64,000 nt of DNA, from contig LEKP01000004.1 of NCBI GenBank assembly GCA_001443025.1, forward strand, positions 27,560 to 91,559. The letters are read 5' to 3'. A model generated the notes under the pieces. It was given only the letters and a program-made list of their open reading frames with translations, was not told where the DNA came from and did no database searches. Of this stretch, positions 1-14,531 are shown in pieces. This DNA is from Parcubacteria bacterium GBS-2. Lineage in GTDB: Bacteria; Patescibacteriota; Minisyncoccia; Minisyncoccales; GBS-2. The position numbers were made by a program, and so were the translations under genes. Position 1 is the stretch's first letter. The number at the start of each line of letters is the position of its first letter.

Positions 1-1314
1 AAAACTGAAAAGAACATTTTAGAAGCAATCGAGTTTGCAAAAAGGTCAAAAGGAAGGTTTCTCTTGGGTGAGATTTTGCCAATAGTAAAAGAGGTTTATG
101 AAAAATTAAAGAATTTAAAAGAAGTTGAAAGGATAGATGTTGTAGGTTCAATTAGAAGAATGAAGGAAACGATTGGGGATGTTGACTTTTTAGTGATTTC
201 AAAAAACCCAGAGCCTATCATGGACTTTTTTGTTTCTCTTCCAGGTGTGATTAAAATTTGGGGGAAAGGAAATACAAAAGCTTCAGTAAGAATGAGGGAA
301 GGTTTTGATATGGATATTAGAGTTTTACCAAAGAGATCCTACGGTGCTGCATTACAATATTTTACCGGTTCAAAAGAGCACAACATAGCTTTGAGAAAAA
401 TTGCTATTGAGAAAGGGTTAAAACTTTCAGAATACGGGCTTTTTAAAGGACCTGAAATGATTGCCGGAGAAGATGAAAAAGAGATTTATGAAAAGTTAGG
501 AATGGACTGGATTCCACCAGAATTAAGAGAAGATAGAGGAGAAATTGAAGCAGCCCTAAATCACAAACTTCCAAAAATCATCGATTACAAAGACATCAAA
601 GGAGACTTGCACGTTCATTCAAAATGGGACGGAGGAAAAAATTCAATAGAAGAAATTGCAGAATATGCAATTAAAATGGGTTATGAATACGTTGGAATCG
701 CAGATCACACCAAGTTTTTGAAAATTGAGCATGGATTGGATGAGAAAAAACTAAGAGAAAGGAATAAAGAAATCGATAAATTAAATACGCAATACGCAAT
801 ACGAAATACGAAATTCCGAATTCTAAAAGGGTGCGAAGCAAACATTTTACCAGATGGGAAAATTGACCTCGATGATGAGTGCTTAAAAGAACAAGATTTT
901 GTGATTGCTGGAGTTCATTCAAAATTTAAAATGTCAAGAGAAGAAATGACAGAAAGAATCATTCGAGCAATGAAAAATCCAAACGTTGATATTATTTCTC
1001 ATCCAACAGGAAGGTTAATTCAAAAAAGAGATGAATACGAGATAGATTTTGATAAAATTTTAAGAGTTGCAAAAGAGACTGGAACGATTTTAGAAATTAA
1101 CTCTTATCCTGAAAGATTAGATTTGAACGATCTTAATATCAAAAAAGCAAAAGAAATGGGAGTGAAAATGGTAATTAACACTGATGCCCACCATGTAGAC
1201 CAAATGAGGTTTATCGAGCTAGGAATTGCTCAAGCAAGGCGGGGTTGGGCTGAAAAAGAAGATATTATAAATTGTTGGTCATTGGAAAAGTTGTTAAAAT
1301 TCCTTAAAAAGTAA
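1..1314 (+). CDS. polX: DNA polymerase X family protein with C-terminal PHP domain; the 5' end runs off the window
   Basis: Frame 1 is open from base 1, with no stop before the Met at 64. It has the GDVDFLV nucleotidyltransferase aspartates, followed by PHP-type metal-ligand motifs HVHSKWDGG, IADH, GVHS, SHPTGR and NTDAHH. Confidence 0.85.
   Translation, partial: KTEKNILEAIEFAKRSKGRFLLGEILPIVKEVYEKLKNLKEVERIDVVGSIRRMKETIGDVDFLVISKNPEPIMDFFVSLPGVIKIWGKGNTKASVRMREGFDMDIRVLPKRSYGAALQYFTGSKEHNIALRKIAIEKGLKLSEYGLFKGPEMIAGEDEKEIYEKLGMDWIPPELREDRGEIEAALNHKLPKIIDYKDIKGDLHVHSKWDGGKNSIEEIAEYAIKMGYEYVGIADHTKFLKIEHGLDEKKLRERNKEIDKLNTQYAIRNTKFRILKGCEANILPDGKIDLDDECLKEQDFVIAGVHSKFKMSREEMTERIIRAMKNPNVDIISHPTGRLIQKRDEYEIDFDKILRVAKETGTILEINSYPERLDLNDLNIKKAKEMGVKMVINTDAHHVDQMRFIELGIAQARRGWAEKEDIINCWSLEKLLKFLKK
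784..825 (+). repeat. Heptanucleotide-periodic tract inside polX
   Basis: AATACGC AATACGC AATACGA AATACGA AATTCCG AATTCTA. 42 nt, in-frame, encodes NTQYAIRNTKFRIL. Confidence 0.85.
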
Positions 1315-1757
1315 TGCCAGTAGAAAAATCAGCTGGGGCAGTAATTTTTAGGAAAGAAAACAATAAAATTTATTATTTGCTTTTGCATTACCCAGGGGCT
1401 TCTCATCGTGCAGAGAAGGATTATTGGGATTTTCCAAAAGGACATATTGAAAAAGGAGAAGAAATTGAGGATACGGTAAAGAGGGAAGTTTTTGAAGAAA
1501 CTGGATTAAAAGATATTAAAATTTTGCCAGGGTTTAAAGAAACAATTAAGTATTTCTTTAAGTTCAAAGGAAAAAACATTTTAAAATTTGTTACTTTTCT
1601 TTTAGCAGAAACAAAAGAAAAAAATGTTCAAATTTCTTTTGAACACATAGGTTATGAGTGGTTACCCTTTGAAAAAGCAATCGAGAAATTAACTTTCCAA
1701 AATGCAAAAGAGATTTTGAAAAAAGCGAACGAATTTTTAAAAACTTTTAATCTTTAA
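1314..1757 (+). CDS. NUDIX hydrolase (Ap4A/8-oxo-dGTP hydrolase-like)
   Basis: Complete Nudix box GHIEKGEEIEDTVKREVFEETGL (G-x5-E-x7-REUxEExGU). It is coupled to polX by a TAATG overlap. Confidence 0.85.
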   Translation: MPVEKSAGAVIFRKENNKIYYLLLHYPGASHRAEKDYWDFPKGHIEKGEEIEDTVKREVFEETGLKDIKILPGFKETIKYFFKFKGKNILKFVTFLLAETKEKNVQISFEHIGYEWLPFEKAIEKLTFQNAKEILKKANEFLKTFNL

Positions 1758-2101
1758 CCCTTTACTTCCTCAACAATTTTCTCAAAAACTTGAGGATGAT
1801 TTTTTGCCAGCTCTGCCAAAATTTTTCTATCCAATTCAATTTTCTTTTCTTTCAATTTTGAAATGAATCTACTGTAGGAAATTCCAAATGGTTTTAGGGC
1901 AGCGCCAATTTGAGTTTGCCACAAAGCTCTCATTTTTCTTTTTTTCTCTTTTCTTCCAACGTAGGCATGTTCTAGAGCATGGTGCAAAGCATCCTTTGCT
2001 AACCTATATTTTGACTTTCTTTTCCATTTAAAACCCTTAACTTTTTTTAAAAGCCTTTCCCTTCTTTTGTGCCTTGTTTTCCCTTTTTTTACCCTTACCA
2101 T
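1754..2101 (-). CDS. rplT: 50S ribosomal protein L20
   Basis: 115 aa basic protein starting MVRVKKGKTRHKRRERLLK..., in the canonical infC-rpmI-rplT order. Confidence 0.95.
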   Translation of the reverse strand: MVRVKKGKTRHKRRERLLKKVKGFKWKRKSKYRLAKDALHHALEHAYVGRKEKKRKMRALWQTQIGAALKPFGISYSRFISKLKEKKIELDRKILAELAKNHPQVFEKIVEEVKG

Positions 2102-2102
2102 T

Positions 2103-2291
2103 TTACGGTCTGCTTAAATATTTTTTAATAATTCTGACCTCAGTTTTAGATAAAGGAACCCACTTTCTGGCTTTTCTTTTTTTCTTTGAAGATTTTTTTG
2201 CCCGGTAGTGGTTTTGTCCACAAACTCTCCTTAAAATTTTTCCAGTTTTTGTAATTTTGAATCTTTTTAGGATTGATTTTCTTGTTTTCAT
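2103..2291 (-). CDS. rpmI: 50S ribosomal protein L35
   Basis: 62 aa protein starting MKTRKSILKRFKITKTGKILRR..., located between infC and rplT. Confidence 0.95.
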   Translation of the reverse strand: MKTRKSILKRFKITKTGKILRRVCGQNHYRAKKSSKKKRKARKWVPLSKTEVRIIKKYLSRP

Positions 2292-2797
2292 TTTTTTGAA
2301 ATTATCATTATAAACCCTCTGGGAACTTTTTTCAAATCTTGTTCCACTTTTATTTGAACTTTACTTTCCAAAATCTCAAGAAATCTTTTGATTTTTTCTT
2401 TTGCAAAATTTGTTAATTCTCTTTCTCTCCCTTTCAGAATCATTTCAATCTGGATTCTATTTCCTTCTTCTAAAAATTCTTTCGCCTGGTTTGCTCTAGT
2501 TTCCATATCATGCTCTGAAATATTAAAACCTAATCTAATCCCTTTAATTTCTTTTCCCTTCTCCTTTCTTTTTTCTTTCTCTTTCTTTTTCATTTGATAA
2601 AGAAACTTTCCGTAATCAAAAATTCTACAAACTGGAGGATCAACTTTCTCTGTAATCTGAATTAAATCTAAATTACGCTCTTTTGCCATTTCGAGTGCTT
2701 CTTCCAAAGAAAAAACCCCCAAATTCTTTCCCTGTTCGTCAATTACCCTGACTTTATTTGCCCTTATTTGATTGTTTATTAAAAATTTCTTTTCCAA
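2288..2797 (-). CDS. infC: Translation initiation factor IF-3, with a non-ATG (TTG) start
   Basis: INNQIRANKVRVIDEQGKNLGV matches the IF-3 N-domain consensus and a C-domain follows. The codon at 2795-2797 is TTG on the coding strand, and there is no in-frame ATG near the N-terminus. Confidence 0.92.
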   Translation of the reverse strand: MEKKFLINNQIRANKVRVIDEQGKNLGVFSLEEALEMAKERNLDLIQITEKVDPPVCRIFDYGKFLYQMKKKEKEKRKEKGKEIKGIRLGFNISEHDMETRANQAKEFLEEGNRIQIEMILKGRERELTNFAKEKIKRFLEILESKVQIKVEQDLKKVPRGFIMIISKK

Positions 2798-2804
2798 AAA
2801 CTTT

Positions 2805-3116
2805 TGGAGATGGGGAGAATTGCACTCCCGTCCGGAAATTCCCCTTTACCAAATCTACGGGCCTAGTCAGTTTAAGGAAAACTGACAACCATCTAGAATA
2901 AATCTAAGATTAATTGTTAACAATCGAAAGTGCTTCCCTCGCTTAATATGACACCTGACACTGCCCGAGCGAGGACAGGCAGGCAGATGGCATTAGCAAT
3001 AAGCTAATGCAAGAGAAGGTTCGTTGGCATTAAATTTTGCTAGAAGTTTAAGGAGATTCTAGCAAACTCCGCCCGCATGGCAAAGGAGAAATTTCCGTCG
3101 ATTCTAATACATCCCC
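2805..3116 (-). ncRNA. ssrA: tmRNA (SsrA), 312 nt, CCA not encoded
   Basis: The minus strand reads 5'-GGGGATGTATTAGAATCGACGGAAAT...GGACGGGAGTGCAATTCTCCCCATCTCCA-3'. The acceptor stem GGGGATG/CATCTCC has the G3:U alanine identity pair. There is a T-arm GGGAG-TGCAATT-CTCCC. A candidate tag ORF GCC AAC GAA ... TAA lies at 3028-2993. The gene is adjacent to smpB. Confidence 0.93.
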
Positions 3117-3120
3117 ATCC

Positions 3121-3205
3121 CTAGCCACCCAGCAAGCCACCCCCCAGCACCCAGAAAACCAGCTAACCAGCACCCAGAAAACCAGATAACCAGCTAACCA
3201 GCAAA
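3121..3205 (-). repeat. CCAG-periodic (7-8 nt) spacer between the smpB stop and the tmRNA 5' end
   Basis: The plus strand reads cacccag|aaaaccag|ctaaccag|cacccag|aaaaccag|ataaccag|ctaaccag. The 15-mer cacccagaaaaccag occurs twice (3148-3162, 3171-3185). The tract is much more C-rich than its surroundings. Confidence 0.8.
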
Positions 3206-3652
3206 CTAATACTCTCTTAGTGCTCTTTGAATTTCTCTTTCTATTTCTCTTTTTTTGATCAATTCCTTCTTTTCAACTTTTTTTCTTACCTTCCCCAATC
3301 CAAATTCCAATTTTATTTTCCCATTTTTAGTATAAACTTTTAATGGTACCAAAGTCAAGCCTTTTTGTTTTGACTTTCCAATTAAATATTTGATTTCAGA
3401 CTTTTTTAGCAAAAGCTTTCTATCCCTTTGCGGGTTATAACTTCCTCCAATGTTTTTTGGTTGCCAAGGCGGAATATTTGCTCCAACCCAGAATGCCTCT
3501 TCCCCTTTTATTACCACATAAGTTCCTGCTAAATTCGTTCCCCAAGCCTTAAGGGACTTTACTTCTTGCCCAAAAAGAGAAATTCCCGCCTCAAATTTTT
3601 CCAAAATTTCAAAATTAAAATGTGCTTTTTTATTTTCTGCCAAAATTCTCAT
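3206..3652 (-). CDS. smpB: SsrA-binding protein SmpB
   Basis: 148 aa with NKKAHFNFEILEKFEAGISLFGQEVKSLK and NPQRDRKLLLKKSEI, both typical SmpB signatures. It lies immediately upstream of ssrA. Confidence 0.95.
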   Translation of the reverse strand: MRILAENKKAHFNFEILEKFEAGISLFGQEVKSLKAWGTNLAGTYVVIKGEEAFWVGANIPPWQPKNIGGSYNPQRDRKLLLKKSEIKYLIGKSKQKGLTLVPLKVYTKNGKIKLEFGLGKVRKKVEKKELIKKREIEREIQRALREY

Positions 3653-3686
3653 TTTTAAATTTTAACAAAAATCTACTAAAATTGAA

Positions 3687-5405
3687 TTGATGAAAGAAAA
3701 AATTAAAAAAACCCTCGAAGATTCAGTTAAGACTCTTTTCCCCGGCATAAAAATTCAAAAATTTCAAATTGAGCACCCAGAGAGAAAAGAGCTAGGAGAT
3801 TACTCGACAAATTTAGCTTTTTTAATTGCTAAAGAGTTAAAAGAAAAACCGATTGAAATAGCAAATCGAATCGCAACCTCGGTTAAGAAAGAAAAAATCT
3901 TTGAAAGAGTTGAAGTTAAAGAACCTGGTTTTATAAATTTTTTCTTTTCTTTAGATTTTTTCTTTAAAGAGTTAAAAAAGATTTTTAAAAAGAAAGAAAA
4001 TTACGGAAAAAGCAAAATTGGAAAAGGAAAAACAGTTATAATTGATTACTCTTCGCCAAACATTGCAAAACCTTTTGGAATCGGACATTTAAGATCCACA
4101 ATCATTGGCCAAGCCCTCTACAACCTTTACAAATTCCTAGGCTATAAAGTTATCGGGGACAATCATTTGGGAGATTGGGGAACCCAATTTGGAAAATTAA
4201 TCTTTGCAATAAAAAAATGGGGAAAAAAGAAAATTGATGATTATTCAGTTAATGAGTTAGAGGAGCTTTACGTGAAATTTCATAAAGAGGCAGAAAAAAA
4301 CCCTCAATTGGAAGAGGAAGGAAGGAAATGGTTTAAAAAATTAGAAGAGGGCGAAAGAGAAGCGAGGAAAATTTGGAAAACTTTAGTTAAAATCTCCTTA
4401 AAGGAATTTGAAAGAATTTATAATCTTTTGGGGGTTAAATTTGATGTAGTTTTGGGAGAGAGCTTTTATGAACCGATGCTAAAAGAAATAATCGAAGAAT
4501 TGAAAAAGAAAAAAATTGCAAAAGAAAGTCAGGGAGCGCTAATAATTGAATTTCCAAATAATGAATTCCCTCCAGTAATTGTTCAAAAATCTGATGGGAC
4601 GACAACTTATTTCACAAGAGATTTAGCAACAATAAAATACAGACTGAAAAGATGGAATCCAGATTTGATAATTTATGAAGTTGGAGTAGATCAGAAATTG
4701 CATTTTCAGCAACTTTTCAAGACAGTAGAGATTTTAAGATGGACTAAAAAAACAAAGTTCGTTCACGTTGCACATGGTTTGTATAGGACCAAAACTGGAA
4801 AATTCTCCACAAGAAAAGGAGAAACTGTCCATTTAGAAGATGTATTAAATGAGGCAATTGAAAGAGCAAGAGAAATCATTGAAAAGTCTGAAACCTCTCG
4901 GGGTTTAACAGAAAAGGAAAAAGAAAAAATTTCCAAAATTGTTGGGATTGGAGCAGTAAAATATAATGATCTTTCTCAGCACCCATCAAAAGACATAGTT
5001 TTTGATTGGGGGAAAGTTTTGAATTTGAAAGGAAATTCCGCTCCTTATTTACAATACACTTTTGTGAGATGCCAGAGCGTTTTGAGGAAGGCTAAAAAAT
5101 CACAAATTGAAAATTGTAAATTGCGAATCGAAAAGTTAAAGAAAGAAGAGATTGAGATTTTAAGAGAGATTTATAAGTTCCCAGAAATAGTCCAAGATGC
5201 AGCAGAAAAATTTTCTCCAAATTTGATTTGTAACTTTGTTTTTGAGTTAGCTAGAAATTATAACTTTTTTTACGATATATACCCTATTTTAAAGGCAGAG
5301 GACAAAGAAATAAAAAATTTTAGACTTCTTTTAACAAAGGCGGTTGCGCAAATTATCCAGAATTCATTATTTCTTTTAGGAATTGAAGTTCCAAAGAGAA
5401 TGTAA
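3687..5405 (+). CDS. argS: Arginyl-tRNA synthetase
   Basis: IDYSSPNIAKPFGIGHLRST (HIGH region), DGTTTYFTRDLA, and a C-terminal DALR-type anticodon-binding region ending in M. The start is probably the ATG at 3690. Confidence 0.95.
   Translation: MMKEKIKKTLEDSVKTLFPGIKIQKFQIEHPERKELGDYSTNLAFLIAKELKEKPIEIANRIATSVKKEKIFERVEVKEPGFINFFFSLDFFFKELKKIFKKKENYGKSKIGKGKTVIIDYSSPNIAKPFGIGHLRSTIIGQALYNLYKFLGYKVIGDNHLGDWGTQFGKLIFAIKKWGKKKIDDYSVNELEELYVKFHKEAEKNPQLEEEGRKWFKKLEEGEREARKIWKTLVKISLKEFERIYNLLGVKFDVVLGESFYEPMLKEIIEELKKKKIAKESQGALIIEFPNNEFPPVIVQKSDGTTTYFTRDLATIKYRLKRWNPDLIIYEVGVDQKLHFQQLFKTVEILRWTKKTKFVHVAHGLYRTKTGKFSTRKGETVHLEDVLNEAIERAREIIEKSETSRGLTEKEKEKISKIVGIGAVKYNDLSQHPSKDIVFDWGKVLNLKGNSAPYLQYTFVRCQSVLRKAKKSQIENCKLRIEKLKKEEIEILREIYKFPEIVQDAAEKFSPNLICNFVFELARNYNFFYDIYPILKAEDKEIKNFRLLLTKAVAQIIQNSLFLLGIEVPKRM
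5102..5136 (+). repeat. Heptanucleotide-periodic tract inside argS
   Basis: ACAAATT GAAAATT GTAAATT GCGAATC GAAAAGT, encoding QIENCKLRIEK. 19/23 identical to the leuS tract. Confidence 0.8.
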
Positions 5406-5569
5406 GGTCTTGACAAGAATTTTTGATTTTCTATAAAATTTTAAGTAGAAAAAAATGACATTAAGAAAAAAAATTTGTTTCGTCTTGATTTTGAGGCCTC
5501 TCGGGCTGGGAGGTTAAGTTGAAATTTTATCTACCCCAAACCTTAGCCTCCCAGCCAGGGAGGCTTTTT
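5403..5569 (+). promoter_or_regulatory. Copy A of a repeated promoter-plus-long-hairpin element (candidate leader or small RNA)
   Basis: TTGACA at 5410-5415 and TATAAAAT at 5432-5439. The 23-bp stem pairs GCCTCTCGGGCTGGGAGGTTAAG (5496-5518) with CTTAGCCTCCCAGCCAGGGAGGC (5542-5564), with 1 mismatch and 2 G:U pairs. A T5 run follows. Homologous to 13688-13870. Confidence 0.7.
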
Positions 5570-5614
5570 AAGTCTCCCTTTAGCACTTTCTATAGTTTTC
5601 TAGGGGGTGTTTTG

Positions 5615-6379
5615 ATGAAGTATTATTGGGGGTTGGAGGAAGCTAAACAAGAGCTTCAGCGAAGGCAGAGAGATGATAAATTGAGAGAAAAAGCAGAAAG
5701 TATACTTAAGGACTGTCCTCTTCCAGAGGGGCAGTATGGATTCTTGGCTAGACATGTTGCTAGTGCTCGATTTGAGGATGTACAGTTTCAGACACGTTGC
5801 AGAGAGAGTGGATTAAAGGCAATATGGCTGGAATTTTCAGAGGATAAATTTGTTACAGTGAATCCATCAAAAATGAGATTAATAAAGATTAGAGTTTACT
5901 GTGGAAAGGGTAAGAGAGGAGGAGACAAGCTTATTTCTGGATACCTGGTTGATCCGAGAAAACTAAATTTTCTAAATGGAGTACCAATGAATCGGATCTA
6001 TTGCAAAAACGGAGAGCCTTTGACAAAAGTTCATCGAGAGATGCGCAACAGTCTCGGACTTAACAATGGAAATGTTTTAGATATCTCCAAGTGGTTGAAA
6101 TCCATAGGGCCAGCAAAACAATATTATCCAAAGTTCTTCATGGCTTTGACCCACAGAGGCATTTTATTTGAAAGCTTTGAAAGTCCAGGATTTCCAACCT
6201 TAGATAAATTCAACGAAGAAGTAGTAATACCAGCGATTGAAGAGACCATAGAAAAACTTGGAGTAGAACCACTGATTGTCTACCATCCAACCTGTATTAG
6301 CTCAGAGGAAGAAGCAAAAATTTTAAATTACTATCCAAAAGAAGTTCTTTCCTACCTCAATACACAAGGGCTCATTTGA
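5615..6379 (+). CDS. Hypothetical protein, no family recognised; visibly higher GC than neighbours
   Basis: 254-aa ORF from the ATG at 5615, preceded by AGGGGG 7 nt upstream. The ORF track starts at the in-frame TTG at 5519, which is preceded by GGGAGG inside the hairpin, so the true start is ambiguous. It has its own terminator at 6387-6413. Confidence 0.7.
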   Translation: MKYYWGLEEAKQELQRRQRDDKLREKAESILKDCPLPEGQYGFLARHVASARFEDVQFQTRCRESGLKAIWLEFSEDKFVTVNPSKMRLIKIRVYCGKGKRGGDKLISGYLVDPRKLNFLNGVPMNRIYCKNGEPLTKVHREMRNSLGLNNGNVLDISKWLKSIGPAKQYYPKFFMALTHRGILFESFESPGFPTLDKFNEEVVIPAIEETIEKLGVEPLIVYHPTCISSEEEAKILNYYPKEVLSYLNTQGLI

Positions 6380-6386
6380 TTTTTTA

Positions 6387-6413
6387 AGGGGTCTTTAATG
6401 ACCCCTATTTTTA
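6387..6413 (+). terminator. Rho-independent terminator
   Basis: AGGGGTC-tttaat-GACCCCT followed by ATTTTTAT. Confidence 0.75.
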
Positions 6414-6429
6414 TACTAAAATTAATCCC

Positions 6430-7386
6430 ATGAGGAGAGAATTTGCTTATTTACTATTCATTAAAAATTTAATTAGCTTTTCTCCTCGACAGCTGGAAGG
6501 CGAACAAAAAGCGGGTGATTTCATTATTTCTTTTTTGGAAAAGTTTAAATTTCAATATAAACTGCAATATTTTTGGACAGAAGTTCCAAAAGTAGAAAAA
6601 GAAATTTTAATAGCTGATGGAAAGAAAATTGCTTGTAAAGGAACTTCTTTTGTTTCTGGAAAAGTAAGGGATAAAAACTATTTAATTAGTTCTTTAATTC
6701 CCTCGCGCTTTTTTCTTGATAAGTCAAATATAAATTTTAACCCAAAATCTCCAGGAATTTCTCTTTCTAATTTTTATTTTGCTCCAGCGATTGCAGTTTG
6801 TAGGGGTGATTTAAATTTGATATTAAAAGCAGAAAAGATCGAAGGAGAAGTGAGAGTGAAACCGGTAAGGTACAAGGCAAGAAACATTTTAGTGGGTAAT
6901 TTAAGAAATCCAAAGGTAATTTGTTTCGCTCATTACGACAGTATTGGAAAAGGAGCAGTTGATAATGCATCGGGAGTAGCAGTACTTTTGAGTACGCTTA
7001 TCTCTCATCCCTTTGTTTTAAAGGAAAATTTATTCGTTTTTTCGGCCAACGAAGAACTTTCCTATGATAAACCCACTTATTGGGGACATGGTTTCCGAGC
7101 TTTTGAAGAAGAATTTTTAAAAACTATGAAAAAAACTAAAAAAATTGTAGTGGTCGATTGTGTTGGCAATGGGAAAGCAAAAATTCTAAAAGACGAAGAA
7201 ATGATCTATTTAGCCTTCCCTATCAAAAATGCAAAGAAATTAAAAAACAAAATATCAATTCTTACAGGCGACCTTGAAAAATTAATGAGCGTTTATCACA
7301 GTGATTTAGATAATCTTAAACAAATTAGCGAAAAATATCTCAGAGAGGCAGAGAGGAAACTTTTAATGTTAATTAAACTGGGATAA
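6430..7386 (+). CDS. M28-family (aminopeptidase-like) zinc peptidase
   Basis: CFAHYDSIGKGAVDNASGVAVLL (His/Asp metal ligands), FSANEELS (Glu-Glu), VVDCVGNG and VYHSDLD together fit the M28 co-catalytic zinc ligand pattern. Confidence 0.65.
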   Translation: MRREFAYLLFIKNLISFSPRQLEGEQKAGDFIISFLEKFKFQYKLQYFWTEVPKVEKEILIADGKKIACKGTSFVSGKVRDKNYLISSLIPSRFFLDKSNINFNPKSPGISLSNFYFAPAIAVCRGDLNLILKAEKIEGEVRVKPVRYKARNILVGNLRNPKVICFAHYDSIGKGAVDNASGVAVLLSTLISHPFVLKENLFVFSANEELSYDKPTYWGHGFRAFEEEFLKTMKKTKKIVVVDCVGNGKAKILKDEEMIYLAFPIKNAKKLKNKISILTGDLEKLMSVYHSDLDNLKQISEKYLREAERKLLMLIKLG

Positions 7387-7407
7387 GGGTGTGATATAAT
7401 TAAGTCT

Positions 7408-10400
7408 ATGGAAATTAATTTTCCAAAACTTGAAGAGAAAATTTTGAGATTTTGGAAGAAAAATAGGATTTTCGAGAAATCGATTGAAAAGAGGAGAAAA
7501 GATTTTGTATTTTATGAAGGTCCTCCGACTGCTAATGCGAAGCCGGGATTACATCATGTATTGAGTAGAGTCTTCAAAGATATAGTTTGCCGTTATAAAA
7601 CAATGGCAGGCTTTAGAGTTTTAAGAAAAGCAGGATGGGATACTCATGGATTGCCAGTTGAATTAGAAATAGAAAAGAAAATTGGAACAAAAACAAAAAA
7701 GGATATTGAAAAATTTGGAATAGAAAAATTCAATTTTTTGTGCAAAAAATCGGTATGGGAATACAAAAAAGATTGGGAAAAATTAACTGAAAGAATTGGT
7801 TTTTGGCTAGATTTGAAAAATCCTTACATTACTTATGAACCGGAATACATTGAATCAGTTTGGTTTTTATTGAAGAAAATTTATGAAAAGGGGCTATTGT
7901 ACGAAGAACTTAAAGTTTCACCCTATTGTCCTCGATGCCAGACAATTTTGTCTTCTCATGAAGTTGCCCAGGGATACAAAAGAATAAAAGAACCTGCAAT
8001 TTATGTAAAATTTAGAGTTTTAAATCCAGAGTACAAAAATTGTTCTCTTTTAGTTTGGACGACAACTCCTTGGACATTGCCAGGAAATGTTGCAATAGCA
8101 GTAAATCCAAATTTTGATTATTTATTTTTAGAAAAAGAGGGAGAAATTTTGATTTTGGCAAAAGAAAGGACAAAGGCATTGGGAATTGAAGGAAAGGTTT
8201 TAAAAGAGGTAAAGGGGAAAGATTTAATTGGTTTGAGATACCAGTCAGTTTTTGATTTTTATCAACCAGATTTTGAAAAAGAAAGAATTTGGGAGGTTTT
8301 GGGAGCAGAGTTTGTATCTTTGGAAGAGGGTACAGGATTGGTTCATATTGCTCCTGCTTTTGGTGAAGAAGATATGGAATTAATAAAAACTCAAAACTCA
8401 AAATTCAAAACTCAAAATCAGAAGAAATTTCCGGTGATTTTGAATGTTGATGAGGAAGGAAGGTTCAAATTAGAGGTTAAAAAGTTTGCGGGCCTTTTTG
8501 TGAAAGATGCAGATTCCCTGATAATTCAAGATCTGAAAGAAAGAGGACTTTTGTTTAAAGAAGAATTATATGAACACGATTATCCATTTTGTTGGAGATG
8601 TAAAACCCCTCTTTTGTATTATGCGAAAAGAAGTTGGTTTATAAGAATGAGTCAAGTAAAAGAAGATTTAATTAAAAACAACGAAAAAATAAATTGGATT
8701 CCAGAGCACATAAAAGAAGGAAGATTCGGTGAATGGTTGAGAGAAATAAAAGATTGGGCTTTATCAAGAGAAAGATATTGGGGTACTCCTTTACCAGTTT
8801 GGAAATGCGCAAACTGTAACAATATAGAAGTAATTGGGTCGATTAAAGAATTGATCTTAAAAAACTCTTCAAAAAACGTTTATTATCTTTTCAGGCACGG
8901 ACACTCTTTAAGACAGGAAATGAAAGTTATCTCTTGTTGGCCAGAAGAAAAACCTCTCACTTTAACTGAAAAAGGAAAAGAAGAGGTAAAAAGAGCAGCG
9001 CTTGAGTTAAAGAAGGAAAAAATTGATTTGATTTTTTCCTCAGATTTAATGAGAACAAAACAAACTGCTGAAATTTTAGCCAAAGAGTTAAAGGTAAGAG
9101 TTATTTTCGATAAGCGATTAAGGGAATTTAATGTTGGAATTTTTAACGGAAAGGATCCTTCTTTGTTTTGGGAGTACATTAAGGACAAAAAAGATCCGCT
9201 TTTTGTAAAAGCGCCGAGAGGAGAAAGCTTGGCTGATGTAAGAAAAAGAATGTATGAATTTTTGAGAAATAAAGAAAAGAAGTTTTCTGGGAAAAAAATT
9301 CTTCTTGTATCTCACGAACTTCCCTTAACTATTCTAGAAGGAACCTTAAAAGGACTTTCGTTGGAAGAAATCTTGGAAAAAAGAAGAAGCGGTAAATTTA
9401 AAACCTTAAAAACTGCTCAATGGAAGAAAGTAGAATTCAAAAGTTTACCTTTCAATGAAAAAGGGGAAATTGATCTTCACCGTCCTTTCATTGATGAAGT
9501 TTCTTTTAAATGTTCAGTTTGTCAAGGCGAAATGAAACGAACTCCAGAAGTAATCGATTGTTGGTTTGATTCTGGAGCAATGCCTTTTGCTCAGTACCAC
9601 TGGCCGTTTTCTGAAATTCCAAAATCCAAGCTCCAAACTCAAAAATTAAAACCGCCAAAGTTATTCCCCGCAGATTACATTTGTGAAGGAATAGATCAAA
9701 CAAGGGGTTGGTTTTATACTCTTTTGGCTATTTCCACCTTAATGGGATTTGGCCCTTCTTATAAAAACGTTATTTCTTTAGGGCACGTTTTGGATGAAAA
9801 AGGGGAAAAAATGTCAAAATCAAAGGGAAATGTGGTTGATCCTTGGTATGTTATTCAGAAGTATGGCACCGAAGCAACAAGATGGTATTTTTTCACTATT
9901 AATCAACCAGGAAATCCCAAACTTTTTTCTGAAAAAGATGTGGCTGAAAGTTTTAAAAGATTTATTTTAACTTTTTGGAACTGTTATTTATTCTTTGATA
10001 CTTACGGAGAAAAGAAAGTTATCGCTACTTCAAGATCGAAGAATGTTTTAGACAGATGGATCATTTCGGAGTTAGAGAGTCTCATTCAAGAAGTATCTGA
10101 AAGTTTGGAAAAATACCACATTACCAAAGCAGCAAGAGTGATTGAAAAATTTGTGGTTGATGATCTTTCGTTGTGGTATATCCGTAGATCAAGAAAAAGA
10201 TTTCAGAAACCAAAAACTCAAAGAGAACTAAAAGAGGCTTCCCAAACTTTGAAATTTGTCTTTTTGAATTTATCAAAAATTTTAGCCCCGTTTTTGCCAT
10301 TTCTATCGGAATTTATTTATCAAAAGATTAAAGGATACAATTTTAAAAGTTCAAATTCTGTCCATTTGGAAAATTGGCCTAAAGTTAATGAAAAACTGAT

Positions 10401-10950
10401 TGATAAAAGGTTAGAAGAAAAGATGGAAAAAGTAAGAAACATTACCTCTTTAGCATTAGCAGAAAGACAAAAAGCAAGAATAAAAGTAAGACAACCATTG
10501 AGCGAATTACAGATTAACGAGACTCAGTTAAAAGATGAAGTAGAGTTGTTAGAGTTAATAAAAGAAGAAGTTAATGTAAAGAAAATAAGCTTTGGAGAGA
10601 AAGTTAAATTAGATACCACAATTACTCCAGAATTAAAAGAAGAAGGAATATTAAGAGAGATAATTCGGCATATTCAGGAAATGAGAAAAGAGTTAAGGTT
10701 AAAACCAAGAGATAAAATTTCAGTTGGGTATTTTGGCGAAGAAGCTATTTCAAAAATTCTAGAAAAAAATAAACAAAATTTCTTGAAAGAGGCGAGGGTT
10801 TTTGATTTAAAAGAACAAGAGGGAGAATACGATTTAGAAAAAGAAATAAAGGTCGACAACAAAAAAATAATCTTGGCAATTAAAAAGATAAATGCAAAAC
10901 ATTCCTCCACCAATTCAACCAAGACCAAAAGCCCCAGAAAGACCTCCTGA
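7408..10950 (+). CDS. ileS: Isoleucyl-tRNA synthetase (type 2-like) carrying an internal ~190 aa extra domain
   Basis: PPTANAKPGLHHV (HIGH), the editing domain WTTTPWTLPGN, zinc knuckles CWRCKTP and CANCNN, KMSKSKGN, and ICEGIDQTRGWFY. At 1180 aa it is about 150-200 aa longer than I expect for this type. Confidence 0.95.
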   Translation: MEINFPKLEEKILRFWKKNRIFEKSIEKRRKDFVFYEGPPTANAKPGLHHVLSRVFKDIVCRYKTMAGFRVLRKAGWDTHGLPVELEIEKKIGTKTKKDIEKFGIEKFNFLCKKSVWEYKKDWEKLTERIGFWLDLKNPYITYEPEYIESVWFLLKKIYEKGLLYEELKVSPYCPRCQTILSSHEVAQGYKRIKEPAIYVKFRVLNPEYKNCSLLVWTTTPWTLPGNVAIAVNPNFDYLFLEKEGEILILAKERTKALGIEGKVLKEVKGKDLIGLRYQSVFDFYQPDFEKERIWEVLGAEFVSLEEGTGLVHIAPAFGEEDMELIKTQNSKFKTQNQKKFPVILNVDEEGRFKLEVKKFAGLFVKDADSLIIQDLKERGLLFKEELYEHDYPFCWRCKTPLLYYAKRSWFIRMSQVKEDLIKNNEKINWIPEHIKEGRFGEWLREIKDWALSRERYWGTPLPVWKCANCNNIEVIGSIKELILKNSSKNVYYLFRHGHSLRQEMKVISCWPEEKPLTLTEKGKEEVKRAALELKKEKIDLIFSSDLMRTKQTAEILAKELKVRVIFDKRLREFNVGIFNGKDPSLFWEYIKDKKDPLFVKAPRGESLADVRKRMYEFLRNKEKKFSGKKILLVSHELPLTILEGTLKGLSLEEILEKRRSGKFKTLKTAQWKKVEFKSLPFNEKGEIDLHRPFIDEVSFKCSVCQGEMKRTPEVIDCWFDSGAMPFAQYHWPFSEIPKSKLQTQKLKPPKLFPADYICEGIDQTRGWFYTLLAISTLMGFGPSYKNVISLGHVLDEKGEKMSKSKGNVVDPWYVIQKYGTEATRWYFFTINQPGNPKLFSEKDVAESFKRFILTFWNCYLFFDTYGEKKVIATSRSKNVLDRWIISELESLIQEVSESLEKYHITKAARVIEKFVVDDLSLWYIRRSRKRFQKPKTQRELKEASQTLKFVFLNLSKILAPFLPFLSEFIYQKIKGYNFKSSNSVHLENWPKVNEKLIDKRLEEKMEKVRNITSLALAERQKARIKVRQPLSELQINETQLKDEVELLELIKEEVNVKKISFGEKVKLDTTITPELKEEGILREIIRHIQEMRKELRLKPRDKISVGYFGEEAISKILEKNKQNFLKEARVFDLKEQEGEYDLEKEIKVDNKKIILAIKKINAKHSSTNSTKTKSPRKTS
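8386..8420 (+). repeat. Heptanucleotide-periodic tract inside ileS (first)
   Basis: AAAACTC AAAACTC AAAATTC AAAACTC AAAATCA, encoding KTQNSKFKTQNQ. Confidence 0.85.
8866..9462 (+). other. Histidine-phosphatase superfamily (PGAM-like, branch 1) domain inserted in-frame within ileS
   Basis: Motifs in order: YYLFRHGHS (RHG), LTEKGKEEV, IFSSDLMRTKQTAEILA, DKRLREFNVGIFNG, APRGESLADVRKRMYEFL, ILLVSHELPLTIL. The insert is flanked by the IleRS segments WKCANCNNIEVIGS and IDLHRPFIDEV...VIDCWFDSG. Confidence 0.8.
9615..9656 (+). repeat. Heptanucleotide-periodic tract inside ileS (second)
   Basis: AATTCCA AAATCCA AGCTCCA AACTCAA AAATTAA AACCGCC, encoding IPKSKLQTQKLKPP. Confidence 0.8.
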
Positions 10951-11281
10951 AAGAAAACCGTCACTTTTTAACTCGAAAGGCTACATAGAGAGAAAATTTT
11001 TTGAAAGAGAATTTCGAGAAGATAAGTATTATGAAAAATGGAGAATTTCTCAAAAAGAAAGAGAAGAAATAGGAAGAACTATAGGGCAGCTTTTTGGAGA
11101 GCTAATAGGAAAGTCGGAAGAGACTAAAATACTTTCTTTGGCAGAAAGACTTCAAAAAGGAGAGTACTATTTACCTCCAGACGAAAAAATTAAAAAAGCA
11201 GCAGACGAAATTATTAAGAAATATGGTCGCGAAAAGGCTCAGGTGATTGGTAAAACTCTAAAAGAACTTCTCGGAAAATAA
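10892..11281 (+). CDS. Hypothetical small charged protein with a Pro-rich N-terminus
   Basis: 129-aa ORF that overlaps the ileS 3' end by 59 nt. No recognisable motif. Confidence 0.45.
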   Translation: MQNIPPPIQPRPKAPERPPERKPSLFNSKGYIERKFFEREFREDKYYEKWRISQKEREEIGRTIGQLFGELIGKSEETKILSLAERLQKGEYYLPPDEKIKKAADEIIKKYGREKAQVIGKTLKELLGK

Positions 11282-11284
11282 GAA

Positions 11285-12007
11285 ATGTTCCTTCGCTATC
11301 GAACTTTAGGATTTGTTTTTAAAAAGGAAGATAAAGGAGAGGCAGACCAGATTTTTAAAATTTTTACAAAAGATTTTGGAAAAGTTGAAGTCCTAGCAAA
11401 AGGAATCAGAAAAATTTCTTCAAAACTAAGGCCTCAAATCGACATTTTTTATCTTTCTGAAATTGAATTTATTCAAGGAAAAATCTATAAAAGATTGATC
11501 GGTGCTTTCTGTGTTGAAAAGTTTAAAAACTTAAGAAGAAGTTTTAAAAGGCTATCAATTGCTTATCAAACTTGCGAAGCTTTGGATAAATTGATAAAAG
11601 GAGAGGAGAAAGATGAAAGAATTTGGAAATTAATCTTGGAAGTTTTCATAAGTTTGGATAAAGAGAAATTTAAGGTTTGTAGTCTTGTTTATTTTTATTT
11701 TTTCTGGAAACTTGCTTCAATTTTAGGTCACAAACCAGAACTTTACTTTTGTTGCGGTTGCCAAAAAAGACCAGAGTTAAAGAAAGTGTATTTTAACCCG
11801 GGAGAAGGAGGTATAATCTGTCAAACTTGCTTTTCAAGAATAAAACAAGGAGAGGAGGTTAGCCAGAATTTAATTAAAATTTTGAGAATAATTTTAGAAA
11901 AAAACCTCGAGTTTCTGAAAAAAGTGAAGGCTAGAGAGAAGGTTGTTGAAGAGTTAAAGGAAATTTCAAATTCTTATTTCTTGTTTTTAACTCAAAACAA
12001 TGTTTAG
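11285..12007 (+). CDS. recO: DNA repair protein RecO
   Basis: OB-fold N-terminus (GFVFKKEDKGEADQIFKIFTKDFGKVEVLAKGIRK) and a Cys4 zinc motif CCGC...CQTC. Confidence 0.85.
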   Translation: MFLRYRTLGFVFKKEDKGEADQIFKIFTKDFGKVEVLAKGIRKISSKLRPQIDIFYLSEIEFIQGKIYKRLIGAFCVEKFKNLRRSFKRLSIAYQTCEALDKLIKGEEKDERIWKLILEVFISLDKEKFKVCSLVYFYFFWKLASILGHKPELYFCCGCQKRPELKKVYFNPGEGGIICQTCFSRIKQGEEVSQNLIKILRIILEKNLEFLKKVKAREKVVEELKEISNSYFLFLTQNNV

Positions 12008-13664
12008 ATTAATTAAAATTTTCATTTTATTTCTGGTCATTGGAGGAATTTTTCTTCTCTGGCAGTTAGAAAAAAATACTTATTCAAAAGAAATTTTGAA
12101 ACTTGAAATTCTAGGCCCGAGTGAAGTTGTTGTTGGTAAAGAAGCAGAGTTTATTGTTAAGTACAAAAATAACGGGAATTTTAGATTGGAAGAGCCAGAG
12201 TTAATTTTTGAGCCTCCTGAAAATTCCTTAAGTGGCGACAAAATTGCTAAAAGAGAGATTTTGAAAGCAGAAAAATTGGGAAATGCTATTTATCCTGGAG
12301 AAGAAAATGCAGTTTCTTTTAAATTAATGATTTTCGGGAAAGAGGGAGAGACAAAAGTGTTAAAAGCTACTTTAAGTTTTAGACCAAAAAATTTGAAAGC
12401 AAGATATTCAGTTTCTACTTCCTTTTCTACTCAGATTAGATCAGTGCCGATTACTTTTGAATTTGATTTACCTTCTAAGATAGAGGTGGGAAAGATTCTT
12501 AATTTCAAAATAGATTATTTTTCAAACGTTGAAAGACCGCTAACTAATTTAAGGGTCCAAGTAGAGTATCCTTCGAGTTTTGAATTTTTTAACTCTAATC
12601 CAAAATCCATTGATAAAACAGATTGGGAGATTCCTCTCTTGAATAAATCAGAAGGAGGAAGAATTGAAATTCAAGGAAAAATTCTTGGAGAAATTGGGAA
12701 AATTGAAATGTTTAGAGCAAAACTGGGAATTTTAAAAGAAAATCAATTCATTGTCTTGAAAGAAATTGAAAAAGGTGTTGAATTGATTAAGCCTTCTATA
12801 TTTTTAAGACAAGAGATTAACGGAAATCCTCAATATGTAGCAGTGCCTGGGGAGTGGTTACACTATACAATCTATTTTAAAAACATTGGTGAAGAAGAAA
12901 TGACGAATCTATTTTTGATTGTCAAACTAGAAGGAGAAGCTTTTGACCTTCAGACCATAAAATCTGATCTCGGAGAATGTAAGCCTGGAGACAACTCTGT
13001 GATTTTTGATTGGAGAAAAGTAACAAAATTGCAATATTTAGCTCCGACCGAAGAAGGAAAAGTTGATTTTTGGGTGAAATTAAAAGACGATCTGGGAAAT
13101 GTAAAAAATCCATATTTAAAAACCAAAGTTTTCATTTCTCACCTAAAGGAGGAATTTGTTACCAGAATTTCTTCAAAAATTGAGGTTGTTCAAAGAGGTT
13201 TTTATTATGATGAAGTGTTTGGCAACTATGGACCAATACCGCCTAAAGTAGGAGAAATAACAACTTACACTATCTTATGGCAAGTAAAAAACTACTATTG
13301 TGATGTAAAAGATGTGAAAGTTAAGGCAAAACTTCCAGAATACGTAAGTTTAACCGGGAAGATTTTTCCAGAAGAAATGGCATCCAAATTTTCTTTTGAC
13401 CAAAATTCAAGAGAAGTTGTTTGGTCGATCGGAAATTTAGAGAGAGGAAAAGGAGTTTTTTCTCAACCCTTGAGCGTTGTTTTTCAAGTTTCTTTTTTAC
13501 CGAAAGAAGATCAAAAAGGGCAAACTCCAGAAATAATTAGCGAAGTGAAGATTTCTGGTGAAGATAGTTGGGCAGAGAAACTTCTTGAAGCAGTTTATCC
13601 AGCGATAAATACTACTTTACCAGATGATCCAATGGTTAAACCGGAGATGGGAATTGTTAATTAA
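12000..13664 (+). CDS. Membrane-anchored hypothetical protein, probably with repeated beta-sandwich domains
   Basis: N-terminal TM helix (IFILFLVIGGIFLLW), then 530 aa of beta-rich sequence. Coupled to recO by an 8-nt overlap. Confidence 0.6.
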   Translation: MFRLIKIFILFLVIGGIFLLWQLEKNTYSKEILKLEILGPSEVVVGKEAEFIVKYKNNGNFRLEEPELIFEPPENSLSGDKIAKREILKAEKLGNAIYPGEENAVSFKLMIFGKEGETKVLKATLSFRPKNLKARYSVSTSFSTQIRSVPITFEFDLPSKIEVGKILNFKIDYFSNVERPLTNLRVQVEYPSSFEFFNSNPKSIDKTDWEIPLLNKSEGGRIEIQGKILGEIGKIEMFRAKLGILKENQFIVLKEIEKGVELIKPSIFLRQEINGNPQYVAVPGEWLHYTIYFKNIGEEEMTNLFLIVKLEGEAFDLQTIKSDLGECKPGDNSVIFDWRKVTKLQYLAPTEEGKVDFWVKLKDDLGNVKNPYLKTKVFISHLKEEFVTRISSKIEVVQRGFYYDEVFGNYGPIPPKVGEITTYTILWQVKNYYCDVKDVKVKAKLPEYVSLTGKIFPEEMASKFSFDQNSREVVWSIGNLERGKGVFSQPLSVVFQVSFLPKEDQKGQTPEIISEVKISGEDSWAEKLLEAVYPAINTTLPDDPMVKPEMGIVN

Positions 13665-13687
13665 AGAACTTTAAAAAGAAATAAAAT

Positions 13688-13870
13688 TAAGGTTAGCTCT
13701 TGACAAACGTTCTTTCTTAAAAATAAAATTAAAGCATGATATCCAAAATAAGAAAAATTCTTGGAGGAGGAAATGGAGGAGCCTCTCGAAGGGAGGCTAG
13801 GTTTAGGTTTGAAAATTTATAGCTTAAAAATTCAATCATTCATTCAACCTAGCCTCCCAAAAGGAGGCTA
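13688..13870 (+). promoter_or_regulatory. Copy B of the repeated promoter-plus-long-hairpin element
   Basis: TAAGGT...CTCTTGACAA (TTGACA at 13700-13705) and ATAAAATT at 13723-13730. The arms AGCCTCTCGAAGGGAGGCTAGGTT (13780-13803) and AACCTAGCCTCCCAAAAGGAGGCT (13846-13869) give 13 bp and 6-7 bp helices around an internal loop. There is a compensatory A-T to G-C change relative to copy A. Confidence 0.7.
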
Positions 13871-13871
13871 A

Positions 13872-14514
13872 ATTTGATTTATTTTAGTATTTATTGCCAA
13901 TCCAAACAATCCCACTGGTTTGTTCGAAGAAAAAGAGAAAATGCTGAACTTAGTGAAAAGATCAAAAAGCATTTTTGTTGTTGATGAAGCAGGAATTGAT
14001 TTTGAAGAAAATTATTCTTTAGTTTACGAAGCTCCCAAACTTAAGAATCTAATTGTTTTAAGGAGTTTATCTAAAGGGTATGGAATGACTGGATTGAGAA
14101 TTGGTTTTTGTGTAAGTTGTGAAAAAATAATCAAAAAATTATCCCTTTATAAAATTCCTTTTTCACTTTCGAGTGTCGCGGTAGAAGCTGGAATTTTAGC
14201 ATTAAATGATGATTTTCATTTGAAAAAAGTAAAAGAATTTTTTAAAAAAGAGAACGAATTTCTATCAGAGAATCTAAAAAAATAGGCCTTGATCCTTGCT
14301 GATTGAAAGTAATTCAATTTTAGCGAAAATAAATCCAATTTTTAGTTCAGCCAAAGAGCTATTAGAAGAATTTTTGAAACATGGAGCAAGTTGTGTAGAC
14401 GGAAGGCATTTTGGCTTACCAAAATTTATTCGAATTTGTCCTAAGGACCACCTTACCAATCAGAAATTTATTGATATAATTACTAAAATAGTAAATCAAA
14501 GGGCCAAAAAATAA
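13872..14514 (+). pseudogene. Decayed class I/II aminotransferase (HisC/CobD-like): 5'-truncated and frameshifted
   Basis: The frame opens right after the TAA at 13869-13871 and reads LIILVFIANPNNPTG, a motif normally about 90-100 aa into the protein. It contains SLSKGYGMTGLRIGF (PLP-Lys region). The frame breaks at the A7 run near 14276. The C-terminal part (SNSILAK...FIRICPKD) continues in another frame at 14296-14514. Confidence 0.8.
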
Positions 14515-14531
14515 AATAAAAGTTAAAAAAT

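Follow-up and report, generated by a model that had tools for sequence, protein, structure and literature searches.

A putative leader-peptide attenuator preceding an unannotated gene of a Parcubacteria bacterium

Introduction

The question raised by the locus considered here is how a gene can be expressed when an intrinsic terminator stands between its promoter and its start codon, and what such an arrangement might serve to sense. The gene in question—an open reading frame (ORF) of 254 codons, with argS to its left and a gene for an M28-like peptidase to its right—lies within a 64,000-nucleotide stretch of the genome of Parcubacteria bacterium GBS-2 (contig LEKP01000004.1, positions 27,560 to 91,559), which stretch we call the window and to whose own numbering the coordinates below belong unless another locus is named. 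A preliminary description of the window had presented this ORF as a compositionally distinct orphan, packaged with a promoter-hairpin element and a terminator of its own as an autonomous cassette, and had proposed for it either a horizontally acquired or a regulated accessory function.

The bacteria of the Candidate Phyla Radiation (CPR), or Patescibacteria, are regarded as auxotrophic for amino acids, and very few regulatory mechanisms are known in them; a full-text literature search, with the subscription journals outside its scope, retrieved no paper linking transcription attenuation with the CPR/Patescibacteria. We consider it somewhat probable that positions 5410-6413 of the window comprise a monocistronic gene under ribosome-mediated attenuation, in which the supply of Ile- and Leu-tRNA, and perhaps of Phe-tRNA, would be sensed in order to control an uncharacterized enzyme. 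If this reading is true, the conserved attenuator would provide a direct, testable read-out of the nutrients that CPR cells monitor.

Organization of the leader

The features of the locus are collected in Table 1. The promoter lies immediately past argS (3687-5405; a Pfam match of 331 bits) in a window that is AT-rich, with a guanine-plus-cytosine (GC) content of about 32%; and both its -35 box, CTTGACAA, and its TAAAAT hexamer are conserved in L005, L011, L014 and L027, where L005, L006, L008 and the like are the labels of loci carrying homologues of the 254-codon gene. The upstream ORF (uORF) that follows has no Shine-Dalgarno sequence. Its 3' end encodes the first two of five short segments, numbered here as regions 0 to 4, and its stop codon TAA (5515-5517) lies inside region 1, so that the leader reads in succession as the chain CCUCUC / GGGAGG / CCUCCC / GGGAGG / CUCCC. 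Region 0 can pair either with region 1, to form a local hairpin, or with region 3, at the base of a long one, the 0:1 pairing being present in 94% of the alignment cells. Region 4, the copy of region 2, is conserved in L005, L011 and L027, and we infer from its complementarity that it could pair with region 3 in read-through transcripts.

Table 1. Features of the locus in the window, and the types of leader found ahead of homologous genes.
Feature	Position	Strand	Remarks
σ70-type promoter, TTGACA-18-TAAAAT	5410-5439	+	11 of 12 consensus positions; begins 5 nt past the argS stop
uORF (leader peptide), MTLRKKICFVLILRPLGLGG-stop	5455-5517	+	20 codons; about 8-10 nt from the predicted transcription start
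Region 0	5493-5502	+	GAGGCCTCTC, also given as GAGGCCUCUC; codons Arg-Pro-Leu
Region 1	5504-5518	+	GGCTGGGAGGTTAAG, also given as GGCUGGGAGGUUAAG; 5' arm of the putative antiterminator
Region 2	5542-5556	+	CTTAGCCTCCCAGCC, also given as CUUAGCCUCCCAGCC; can pair with region 1 (antiterminator) or region 3 (terminator)
Region 3	5558-5565	+	GGGAGGCU, then U5
Predicted intrinsic terminator of the attenuator	5545-5569	+	AGCCTCCC-AGCCA-GGGAGGCT, then TTTTT
Region 4	5570-5578	+	AAGTCTCCC, also given as AAGUCUCCC; copy of region 2
Shine-Dalgarno-like GGGGGTG of the 254-codon gene	5603-5609	+	orthologues have GGAGG at the same place
254-codon ORF	5615-6379	+	ATG start; large unannotated family
Intrinsic terminator of the 254-codon gene	6387-6413	+	AGGGGTC-TTTAAT-GACCCCT; stem 6387-6406, T-run to 6413
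-10 element TAAAAT	6417-6422	+	7 nt ahead of the M28-like start codon; a leaderless mRNA is predicted for that gene
M28-like peptidase gene	6430-7386	+	318 residues; PF04389, 38 bits against a cut-off of 21.3
Leader type A1			window, L005, L027, L011, L014, L006; peptides MTLRKKICFVLILRPLGLGG; MLKIKTKNFMILILKPFLLGG; MAKRKNQILFIFILKPLWLGG
Leader type A2			L024, L025; peptide ending in IIVLFILLIWLGGLGFKKIRY
Leader type A3			L023, L026
Leader type B			L009, L020, L018; peptide MNLLVNLTFVLFIILVGSGPGLMI
Leader type C			L019, L028, L030 (Moraniibacteriota); peptide MSHLQAKTYFFYFFWFTNRAGFGLKGILRKA

The promoter-hairpin element that had been described ahead of the gene is thus borne out: an inverted repeat with arms at 5496-5518 and 5542-5564 is 87% complementary, and the 215-nt leader folds at -69.9 kcal/mol, with a z-score of -5.07 against dinucleotide shuffles. 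The ORF itself is likewise real, and its ATG at 5615 is the true start, since 29 close homologues of 243-282 residues all align with it from residues 1-4; the alternative initiation at TTG 5519, which would have lengthened the product to 286 residues, is ruled out by those same homologue starts, that triplet being situated in the loop of the leader hairpin. Since the 45 nt between the attenuator terminator and this ATG contain no promoter match, expression of the gene needs read-through of the terminator.

At the Rfam gathering thresholds the window matches only the transfer-messenger RNA (tmRNA). Below them, the leader scores 25.3 bits (E 0.016-0.026, for a gathering threshold of 55) against the Phe_leader family RF01859, which match is driven by a near-identical terminator hairpin, GCCUCCCA..GGGAGGCU. 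A riboswitch or a T-box was rejected for the lack of any Rfam match and because the leader is too short, and a translational lock in which region 4 covers the Shine-Dalgarno sequence, as it does in the minimum-free-energy (MFE) structure of the window leader, was dropped because the complementarity is not kept in L005. A search throughout the window for more copies of the terminator motif found none.

Conservation of the leader and of its peptides

In all the lineages the region upstream of the gene is 120-930 nt long. We analyzed 14 leaders from distinct lineages, whose 254-residue-family proteins are 32-55% identical, and in every one of the 14 found a σ70-type promoter together with an ATG-initiated uORF of 20-42 codons; this uORF coincides at its 5' end with the predicted start of transcription, or lies no more than a few nucleotides away, and stops 44-58 nt before the U-run. 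These homologues are preceded by an element of the same design, and by a uORF whose hydrophobic run consists of Ile, Leu, Val, Phe, Met or Trp to the extent of 39-68%; the chance of such a uORF in a shuffled leader is 0.02-0.14 per leader, and 0.024 for that of the window. The leaders fall into five sequence-distinct types—A1, A2, A3, B and C—which share one design with different nucleotides: in type B the successive segments are CCCGGC / GCCGGG / CCCGGC and in type C GGUCAG / CUGACC / GGUCAG, and the design is present also in a metagenome-assembled genome (MAG) of the Moraniibacteriota.

The peptides are conserved in a manner that bears on whether the uORF is translated. Among seven uORFs of type A1 the pair Ile-Leu (ATT TTR) is invariant, and the terminal Leu-Gly-Gly-stop is kept by means of 4, 2, 2 and 2 synonymous codons, respectively, even where a base pair is lost as a consequence; this retention of the peptide through synonymous, pair-breaking changes indicates selection on translation. 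In the longer leader peptides a hydrophobic core is flanked by basic residues, at the N-terminus and in the tail.

Two further arrangements were observed between leader and gene. In L023 (about 1160-1330) and L026 (about 2390-2500) the interval between the attenuator and the gene contains strong Shine-Dalgarno sequences, behind which stand minimal ORFs of a start and a stop codon only (ATG-TAA, ATG-TGA); and in the type-B loci L009, L018 and L020, as well as in L008 (5940-6000), a small GC hairpin followed by GTGAACnCTAAA directly precedes the Shine-Dalgarno sequence of the gene as a second conserved element. L008 has no attenuator.

Alternative pairings of the leader RNA

In order to follow the pairings of the leader, we calculated MFE structures with ribosome-sized stretches held unpaired; all the RNA states given here are accordingly thermodynamic predictions. 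With a ribosome on the uORF stop codon, the compact 2:3 terminator formed beside the U-run in 14 of the 14 leaders, and the free leader RNA folded into the long hairpin, with 1:2 nested in 0:3, which structure also abuts the U-run. The terminator was lost only when the A site occupied 2-5 particular codons where the hydrophobic run ends (13 of the 14 leaders), those codons being Ile-Leu in type A, Ile, Leu or Val in type B, and Phe, Trp, Met or Leu in type C; a change of ±3 nt in the footprint shifted this predicted read-through window by one codon. The pairings 1:2 and 2:3 compete in all five leader types in these computations. In the alignment of type A1, the 15 pairs of the antiterminator 1:2 are formed in 93% of the cells, with two compensatory changes, and those of the terminator 2:3 in 98%, with one such change, from C-G to U-A.

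Reuse of the leader

A covariance model, R1, built on the A1 leader recovered all the training sequences and, weakly, the other leader types. In L006 it disclosed another complete copy of the type-A leader (3056-3163; 86 bits, E 7e-20), with the uORF MCHRESQNLFFYILKPLRLGG-stop, just upstream of the leader that belongs to the 254-residue homologue; this second copy precedes two divergent DIT1/PvcA-like genes (3197-4183 and 4333-5463), a family known to consume aromatic amino acids, and its presence suggests that the leader marks a small regulon. Within the window, R1 matched positions 13767-13889 (23.6 bits, E 0.0055), where a leader-like element at 13700-13890 contains a TTGACA-18-TAAAAT promoter, nested GGGAGGCU/AGCCUCCC hairpins, a weak U-run and a leaderless uORF (13736-13822; MISKIRKILGGGNGGASRREARFRFENL-stop). 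The gene behind it (13878-14514) corresponds to a truncated class I/II aminotransferase that covers Pfam positions 149-291 of 361: some 150 N-terminal residues are missing, and the C-terminal piece is split off.

Proposed mechanism of attenuation

The anatomy, the conservation and the competing pairings described above lead us to propose the following sequence of events. Transcription would start from the promoter at 5410-5439, and a ribosome would at once translate the 20-codon hydrophobic leader peptide, in whose coding sequence regions 0 and 1 are included. If that ribosome reached the stop codon in region 1, regions 2 and 3 would pair as an 8-bp GC hairpin followed by U5, and transcription would end at about position 5569; and if the leader were left untranslated, the long hairpin, formed by 0:3 and 1:2, would abut the U-run, with termination again as the outcome. 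If, alternatively, the ribosome paused while the invariant Ile-Leu codons that close the hydrophobic run occupied its A site, region 0 would be covered and regions 1 and 2 would pair, upon which region 3 would remain partnerless and the RNA polymerase would read into the 254-codon gene. What is sensed is most likely a scarcity of charged Ile- or Leu-tRNA—of Phe- or Trp-tRNA in one leader type—because the predicted antitermination window falls on codons for Ile and Leu (for Phe in type C), and because the identity of those codons varies from type to type within a constant design.

In several respects this arrangement is like that of the Escherichia coli ilvGMEDA, leu, pheA, trp, his and thr attenuators, where a short ORF close to the promoter, with certain codons in abundance, overlaps, by its 3' part, the first of several mutually exclusive hairpins; where a GC hairpin with a U-tract forms a terminator before the structural gene; and where the untranslated RNA also terminates. 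The ilvGMEDA leader, with a Pro/Gly-rich end after its hydrophobic run, resembles those of types A and B, as the pheA leader, with its Phe run, resembles those of type C. The window differs from those examples, however, in its CPR-type host, in a controlled gene that is not biosynthetic, in a nearly leaderless uORF without a Shine-Dalgarno sequence, in a codon run that mixes Ile, Leu, Phe and Val, and in an unrelated nucleotide sequence.

Several points weigh against tRNA-sensing attenuation. Translation of the uORF, which has no Shine-Dalgarno sequence, is assumed, and in L006 the best -10 hexamer shares nucleotides with the ATG of the uORF. T-rich sequence tends toward hydrophobic residues in any event, the regulatory stretch mixes hydrophobic residues, with no long repetition of any single codon, and the uORFs of two leaders from Saccharibacteria MAGs are not hydrophobic, one of these two leaders being also without a predicted switch. 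The read-through window is narrow and comes from MFE folding rather than from cotranscriptional kinetics, and one of the 14 leaders, that of L024, has no such window at all. Covariation within type A1 has little statistical weight, the sequences being so much alike: 33-35 of 500 shuffles reach the observed value. The stronger argument is the persistence of one design in five leader types that differ in their nucleotides. Induction by starvation is poorly reconciled with the DIT1/PvcA-like genes that follow the second leader of L006. Finally, the M28-like gene has a promoter of its own, so that any co-regulation with the 254-codon gene would be conjectural.

The same attenuator anatomy could be read in another way, in that the uORF might encode an arrest peptide that senses a metabolite or an antibiotic in the exit tunnel, as in ermC/ermK, vmlR, msrD and tnaC, with the 254-residue protein as the response or resistance enzyme; an explanation that we hold to be unlikely. 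The ermC, ermK, vmlR, msrD, lmo0919 and tnaC systems share with the window a short hydrophobic uORF upon which a stalled ribosome remodels a downstream terminator or antiterminator; and the predicted read-through window is indeed site-specific, being confined to 2-5 codons on an invariant I-L-(K/R)-P motif, the conservation of the uORF peptide exceeds a simple enrichment in codons, and some family members are fused to amine-modifying GNAT or SET domains. Furthermore, ErmCL reportedly stalls on IFVI, a similar hydrophobic stretch. The 254-residue protein, however, matches no resistance or defense family, and an arrest peptide would leave its conserved pairing with an aminopeptidase unexplained. 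Unlike what would be expected for a specific nascent chain, the leader peptides are not conserved between types—they are variously rich in Ile and Leu, rich in Phe, Tyr and Trp, or terminated by Gly-Pro ends—which strong difference the sensing of codons fits better.

The neighborhood and the M28-like partner

The terminator that had been noted downstream of the gene is confirmed as a stem with a T-run, and a hairpin with a U-run directly 3' of the gene recurs in 13 of the 14 orthologous loci. Beyond it stands a -10 element that belongs to the M28-like gene itself, and in most of the close loci a TAAAAT or TATAAT hexamer, often TGn-extended, precedes the M28-like ATG by 5-14 nt (mostly 7-8 nt), while a Shine-Dalgarno sequence is lacking; a leaderless M28-like mRNA is therefore expected from this spacing. 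By these signals the two genes are neighbors rather than members of one operon, and the 254-codon gene is, as had been supposed, a stand-alone and regulated transcription unit whose promoter, structured leader and terminator are conserved in the orthologues. The contention that nearly every other gene of the window is coupled to its neighbor was, for its part, an overstatement: 28 of the 49 same-strand junctions have gaps of at most 20 nt, and six others exceed 150 nt.

That the unit is transcribed separately does not make it an autonomous cassette, since the M28-like gene is its fixed neighbor in every locus examined. Wherever a distinct locus extends into downstream DNA, the latter gene comes next, 40-120 nt further on, except in L008, where the two are 3 kb apart with three genes between them. 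This adjacency is kept at 32% identity of the 254-residue-family protein (L028), the downstream protein there being 43% identical to the M28-like protein of the window. A GTDB scan with the M28-like alignment found four true orthologues, all in CPR MAGs (two of Saccharibacteria, one of Moraniibacteriota and one unclassified), and in 4 of the 4 a member of the 250-residue family stood directly upstream; a GTDB scan with the protein-family pattern of the 254-residue family itself gave no match.

The M28-like proteins, at 55-70% identity, are more conserved than their 254-residue-family partners. Residues H168, D178, E208-E209, D243 and H290 are invariant among 11 orthologues, and we take them to correspond to the canonical di-zinc ligands. 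With the M28 leucine aminopeptidases of Vibrio/Aeromonas and Streptomyces the protein thus shares a Pfam match and the pattern H...D...EE...D...H, from which enzymes it nevertheless differs in being highly divergent (some 94 residues match the Pfam profile), in having no signal peptide, in possessing a distinct and conserved N-terminal region of about 150 residues, and in being encoded next to an unannotated 250-residue family on an apparently leaderless mRNA. It had no sequence match in NCBIfam or the PDB.

Probably, then, the putative 254-residue enzyme acts in the same process as this adjacent cytosolic aminopeptidase. That process might plausibly be the release and handling—a form of salvage—of hydrophobic amino acids from peptides in an auxotroph, which is a guess based on the gene association, the composition of the leader and the low Ile content of the protein, and which the occurrence of DIT1/PvcA-like genes behind the same leader type weakens.

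The succession of uORF, enzyme and peptidase genes might also suggest that the uORF encodes a functional small hydrophobic protein, or a precursor like those of the ribosomally synthesized and post-translationally modified peptides (RiPPs), and that a leaky terminator sets its stoichiometry with respect to a modifying enzyme (the 254-residue protein) and a processing peptidase (the M28-like one). The conservation of the peptide at the amino-acid level through synonymous changes, and the basic ends that flank the hydrophobic core of the longer versions, agree with that proposal, which we nonetheless judge to be quite improbable. The uORF has no Shine-Dalgarno sequence, and its versions of 20-21 residues are too short to span a membrane; no Cys, Ser or Thr core is conserved, and the C-terminus varies, ending in Gly-Gly or extending for 10-15 residues more; and the neighboring proteins match no RiPP family. 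Moreover, region 3 copies region 1, which a switch requires and a simple terminator does not, the M28-like gene stands with its own promoter behind a second terminator, and the same leader is found ahead of unrelated genes.

Upstream, the neighborhood is less constant, and this variation bears on the notion that the hairpin is merely the terminator of argS beside a constitutive promoter, with the uORF and the alternative pairings incidental. The promoter does begin 5 nt past the argS stop, no other argS terminator exists, and the free leader RNA folds to a hairpin that abuts the U-run. Yet the hairpin lies downstream of the promoter, so that it would end the gene's own transcripts as well; the leader persists where the upstream gene is DIT1/PvcA-like, YkuD/M23, GATase, CsrA or unknown instead of argS; and the uORF is conserved in 14 of the 14 leaders. 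The data contradict this explanation, which we regard as very improbable.

Composition of the gene

In comparison with 53 ORFs of the window, the 254-codon gene is an outlier, as had been stated, and in its codon usage even more markedly than that statement held: its GC content is 0.387 against 0.328±0.025 (z 2.3, rank 3 of 53), its GC content at third codon positions (GC3) 0.333 against 0.262±0.031 (z 2.35, rank 3 of 53), and its index of codon adaptation, calculated in the manner of the codon adaptation index, 0.565 against 0.666±0.032 (z -3.2), the lowest of all. The enrichment in Arg, Gly and Cys that formed part of the same statement proved to be mild (z 1.0, 0.5 and 1.5, respectively), and an equally notable trait is the low content of Ile (rank 51 of 53), that of Lys being low as well; the shift is instead a general move toward G/C-ending codons.

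The same departure is seen elsewhere. In 14 of the 14 lineages examined, with host GC contents of 0.23-0.49 and proteins 32-55% identical to that of the window, the GC and GC3 of the homologue are higher than those of its own locus and far higher than those of the adjacent M28-like gene, as exemplified by GC3 values of 0.45 versus 0.155 in L020 and of 0.51 versus 0.26 in L023. The composition is therefore intrinsic to the gene and gives no sign of recent transfer; and, the anomaly being intrinsic and independent of lineage, atypical composition alone cannot be taken as evidence for horizontal transfer. The order smpB-argS-gene-M28-ileS-x-recO, moreover, is retained where the homologue of another genome is only 53% identical, a synteny that indicates vertical inheritance, and the gene order of the window is repeated on four contigs that carry the identical protein.

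That the gene belongs to a recently acquired accessory cassette, as its deviating GC, GC3 (z about 2.3) and codon adaptation and its own promoter and terminator might be held to reveal, is thus hardly credible, being contradicted by the synteny, by the recurrence of the offset in 14 lineages, by the lack of tRNA genes, flanking direct repeats or mobility genes around the gene, and by the lack of relatives of the protein in the phage, plasmid and IMG/VR collections.

As observations in their own right, the surplus of codons ending in G or C and the scarcity of Ile recur independently of lineage in the window gene and its orthologues (14 loci), the M28-like neighbor lacking both; and two other ORFs of the window are also compositional outliers, namely that of a 591-residue PG_binding_1 protein (60914-62689, forward strand; GC 0.425) and that of a DUF218 protein (28618-29259, reverse strand; GC 0.388).

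The protein family and its predicted fold

The 254-residue protein is not an orphan. In an exhaustive HMMER scan of 1.84 billion cluster representatives, the family comprised 585 clusters (at 50% identity) with E<1e-3, of which 332 had E<1e-10, and 29 relatives, 40-55% identical, came from a word-indexed search; the database members are all labeled "hypothetical." The absence of a recognizable motif was, in contrast, upheld: the single protein had no match in Pfam, NCBIfam, PHROGs, PADLOC or the PDB sequences, none of 143 diverse members matched Pfam, NCBIfam returned only chance matches, and the family profile found nothing among the PDB sequences. Across those 143 members, residues Y4, R17, P35, F58, D77, K86, H140, D156, Y171, E186, F199, P206 and P219 are conserved to at least 90%, which pattern looks like that of an enzyme; and we consider the product to be, probably, a soluble enzyme of an unannotated, CPR-centered family.

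An AlphaFold2 model based on the 29-sequence alignment reached a predicted local distance difference test (pLDDT) of 95.1 and a predicted template-modeling score (pTM) of 0.91. When this model was compared by Foldseek with the PDB, no match was significant, the best having an E of 0.13 and template-modeling (TM) scores not exceeding 0.30; and among the BFVD entries, none of them significant, a single unnamed protein was returned with a probability of 0.95 and a TM score of 0.45. Very weak structural echoes of the HUP-class Rossmann-like folds (cytidylyltransferase, NMNAT, QueC, USP) were obtained in BFVD and the PDB, with TM scores of 0.28-0.36, but unlike those proteins the 254-residue protein has no HxGH or SGGxDS-type motif. 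Kinship with the DIT1/PvcA-like proteins, considered for a similar strand-(E/D)-x-x-F motif, received a probability of 0.3% from hhalign and was rejected; and cyclodipeptide synthase, L/F-transferase and a kinase-like glycine loop were dropped for want of Pfam or Foldseek support.

Fusions occur occasionally among distant members of the family, with an N-terminal GNAT domain in P0076, P0090 and P0139 and with a C-terminal SET domain in P0144, P0206 and P0210. Since GNAT and SET both act on amino groups, these fusions may hint at the class of substrate. A widespread, unannotated family with a confident predicted structure, no solved relative and a fixed M28 partner constitutes a well-defined target for biochemistry and structural work.

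If attenuation by tRNA supply does govern the gene, one may extend the proposal, speculatively and with considerable doubt, to a starvation switch of the CPR in which a nearly leaderless peptide would read the charging of Ile-, Leu- and Phe-tRNA and a five-segment GGGAGG/CCUCCC attenuator would respond; in which an enzyme of a fold not found in the PDB, together with a leaderless M28 aminopeptidase in the salvage of hydrophobic amino acids, would be the output, with the G/C-ending codons and low Ile content an adaptation to translation while the common A/T-ending codons are "hungry"; and in which a small regulon might include the DIT1/PvcA-like genes and the aminotransferase remnant.

Other genes of the window

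Two neighbors of the locus merit description. The isoleucyl-tRNA synthetase (7408-10950, 1180 residues) has a His_Phos_1 domain, similar to phosphoglycerate mutase, inserted between the halves of its catalytic domain, as does that of L005. On the other side of argS, the tmRNA gene (2802-3116, reverse strand; Rfam, 115.6 bits), which ARAGORN did not report in positions 1-16000, adjoins smpB (3206-3652).

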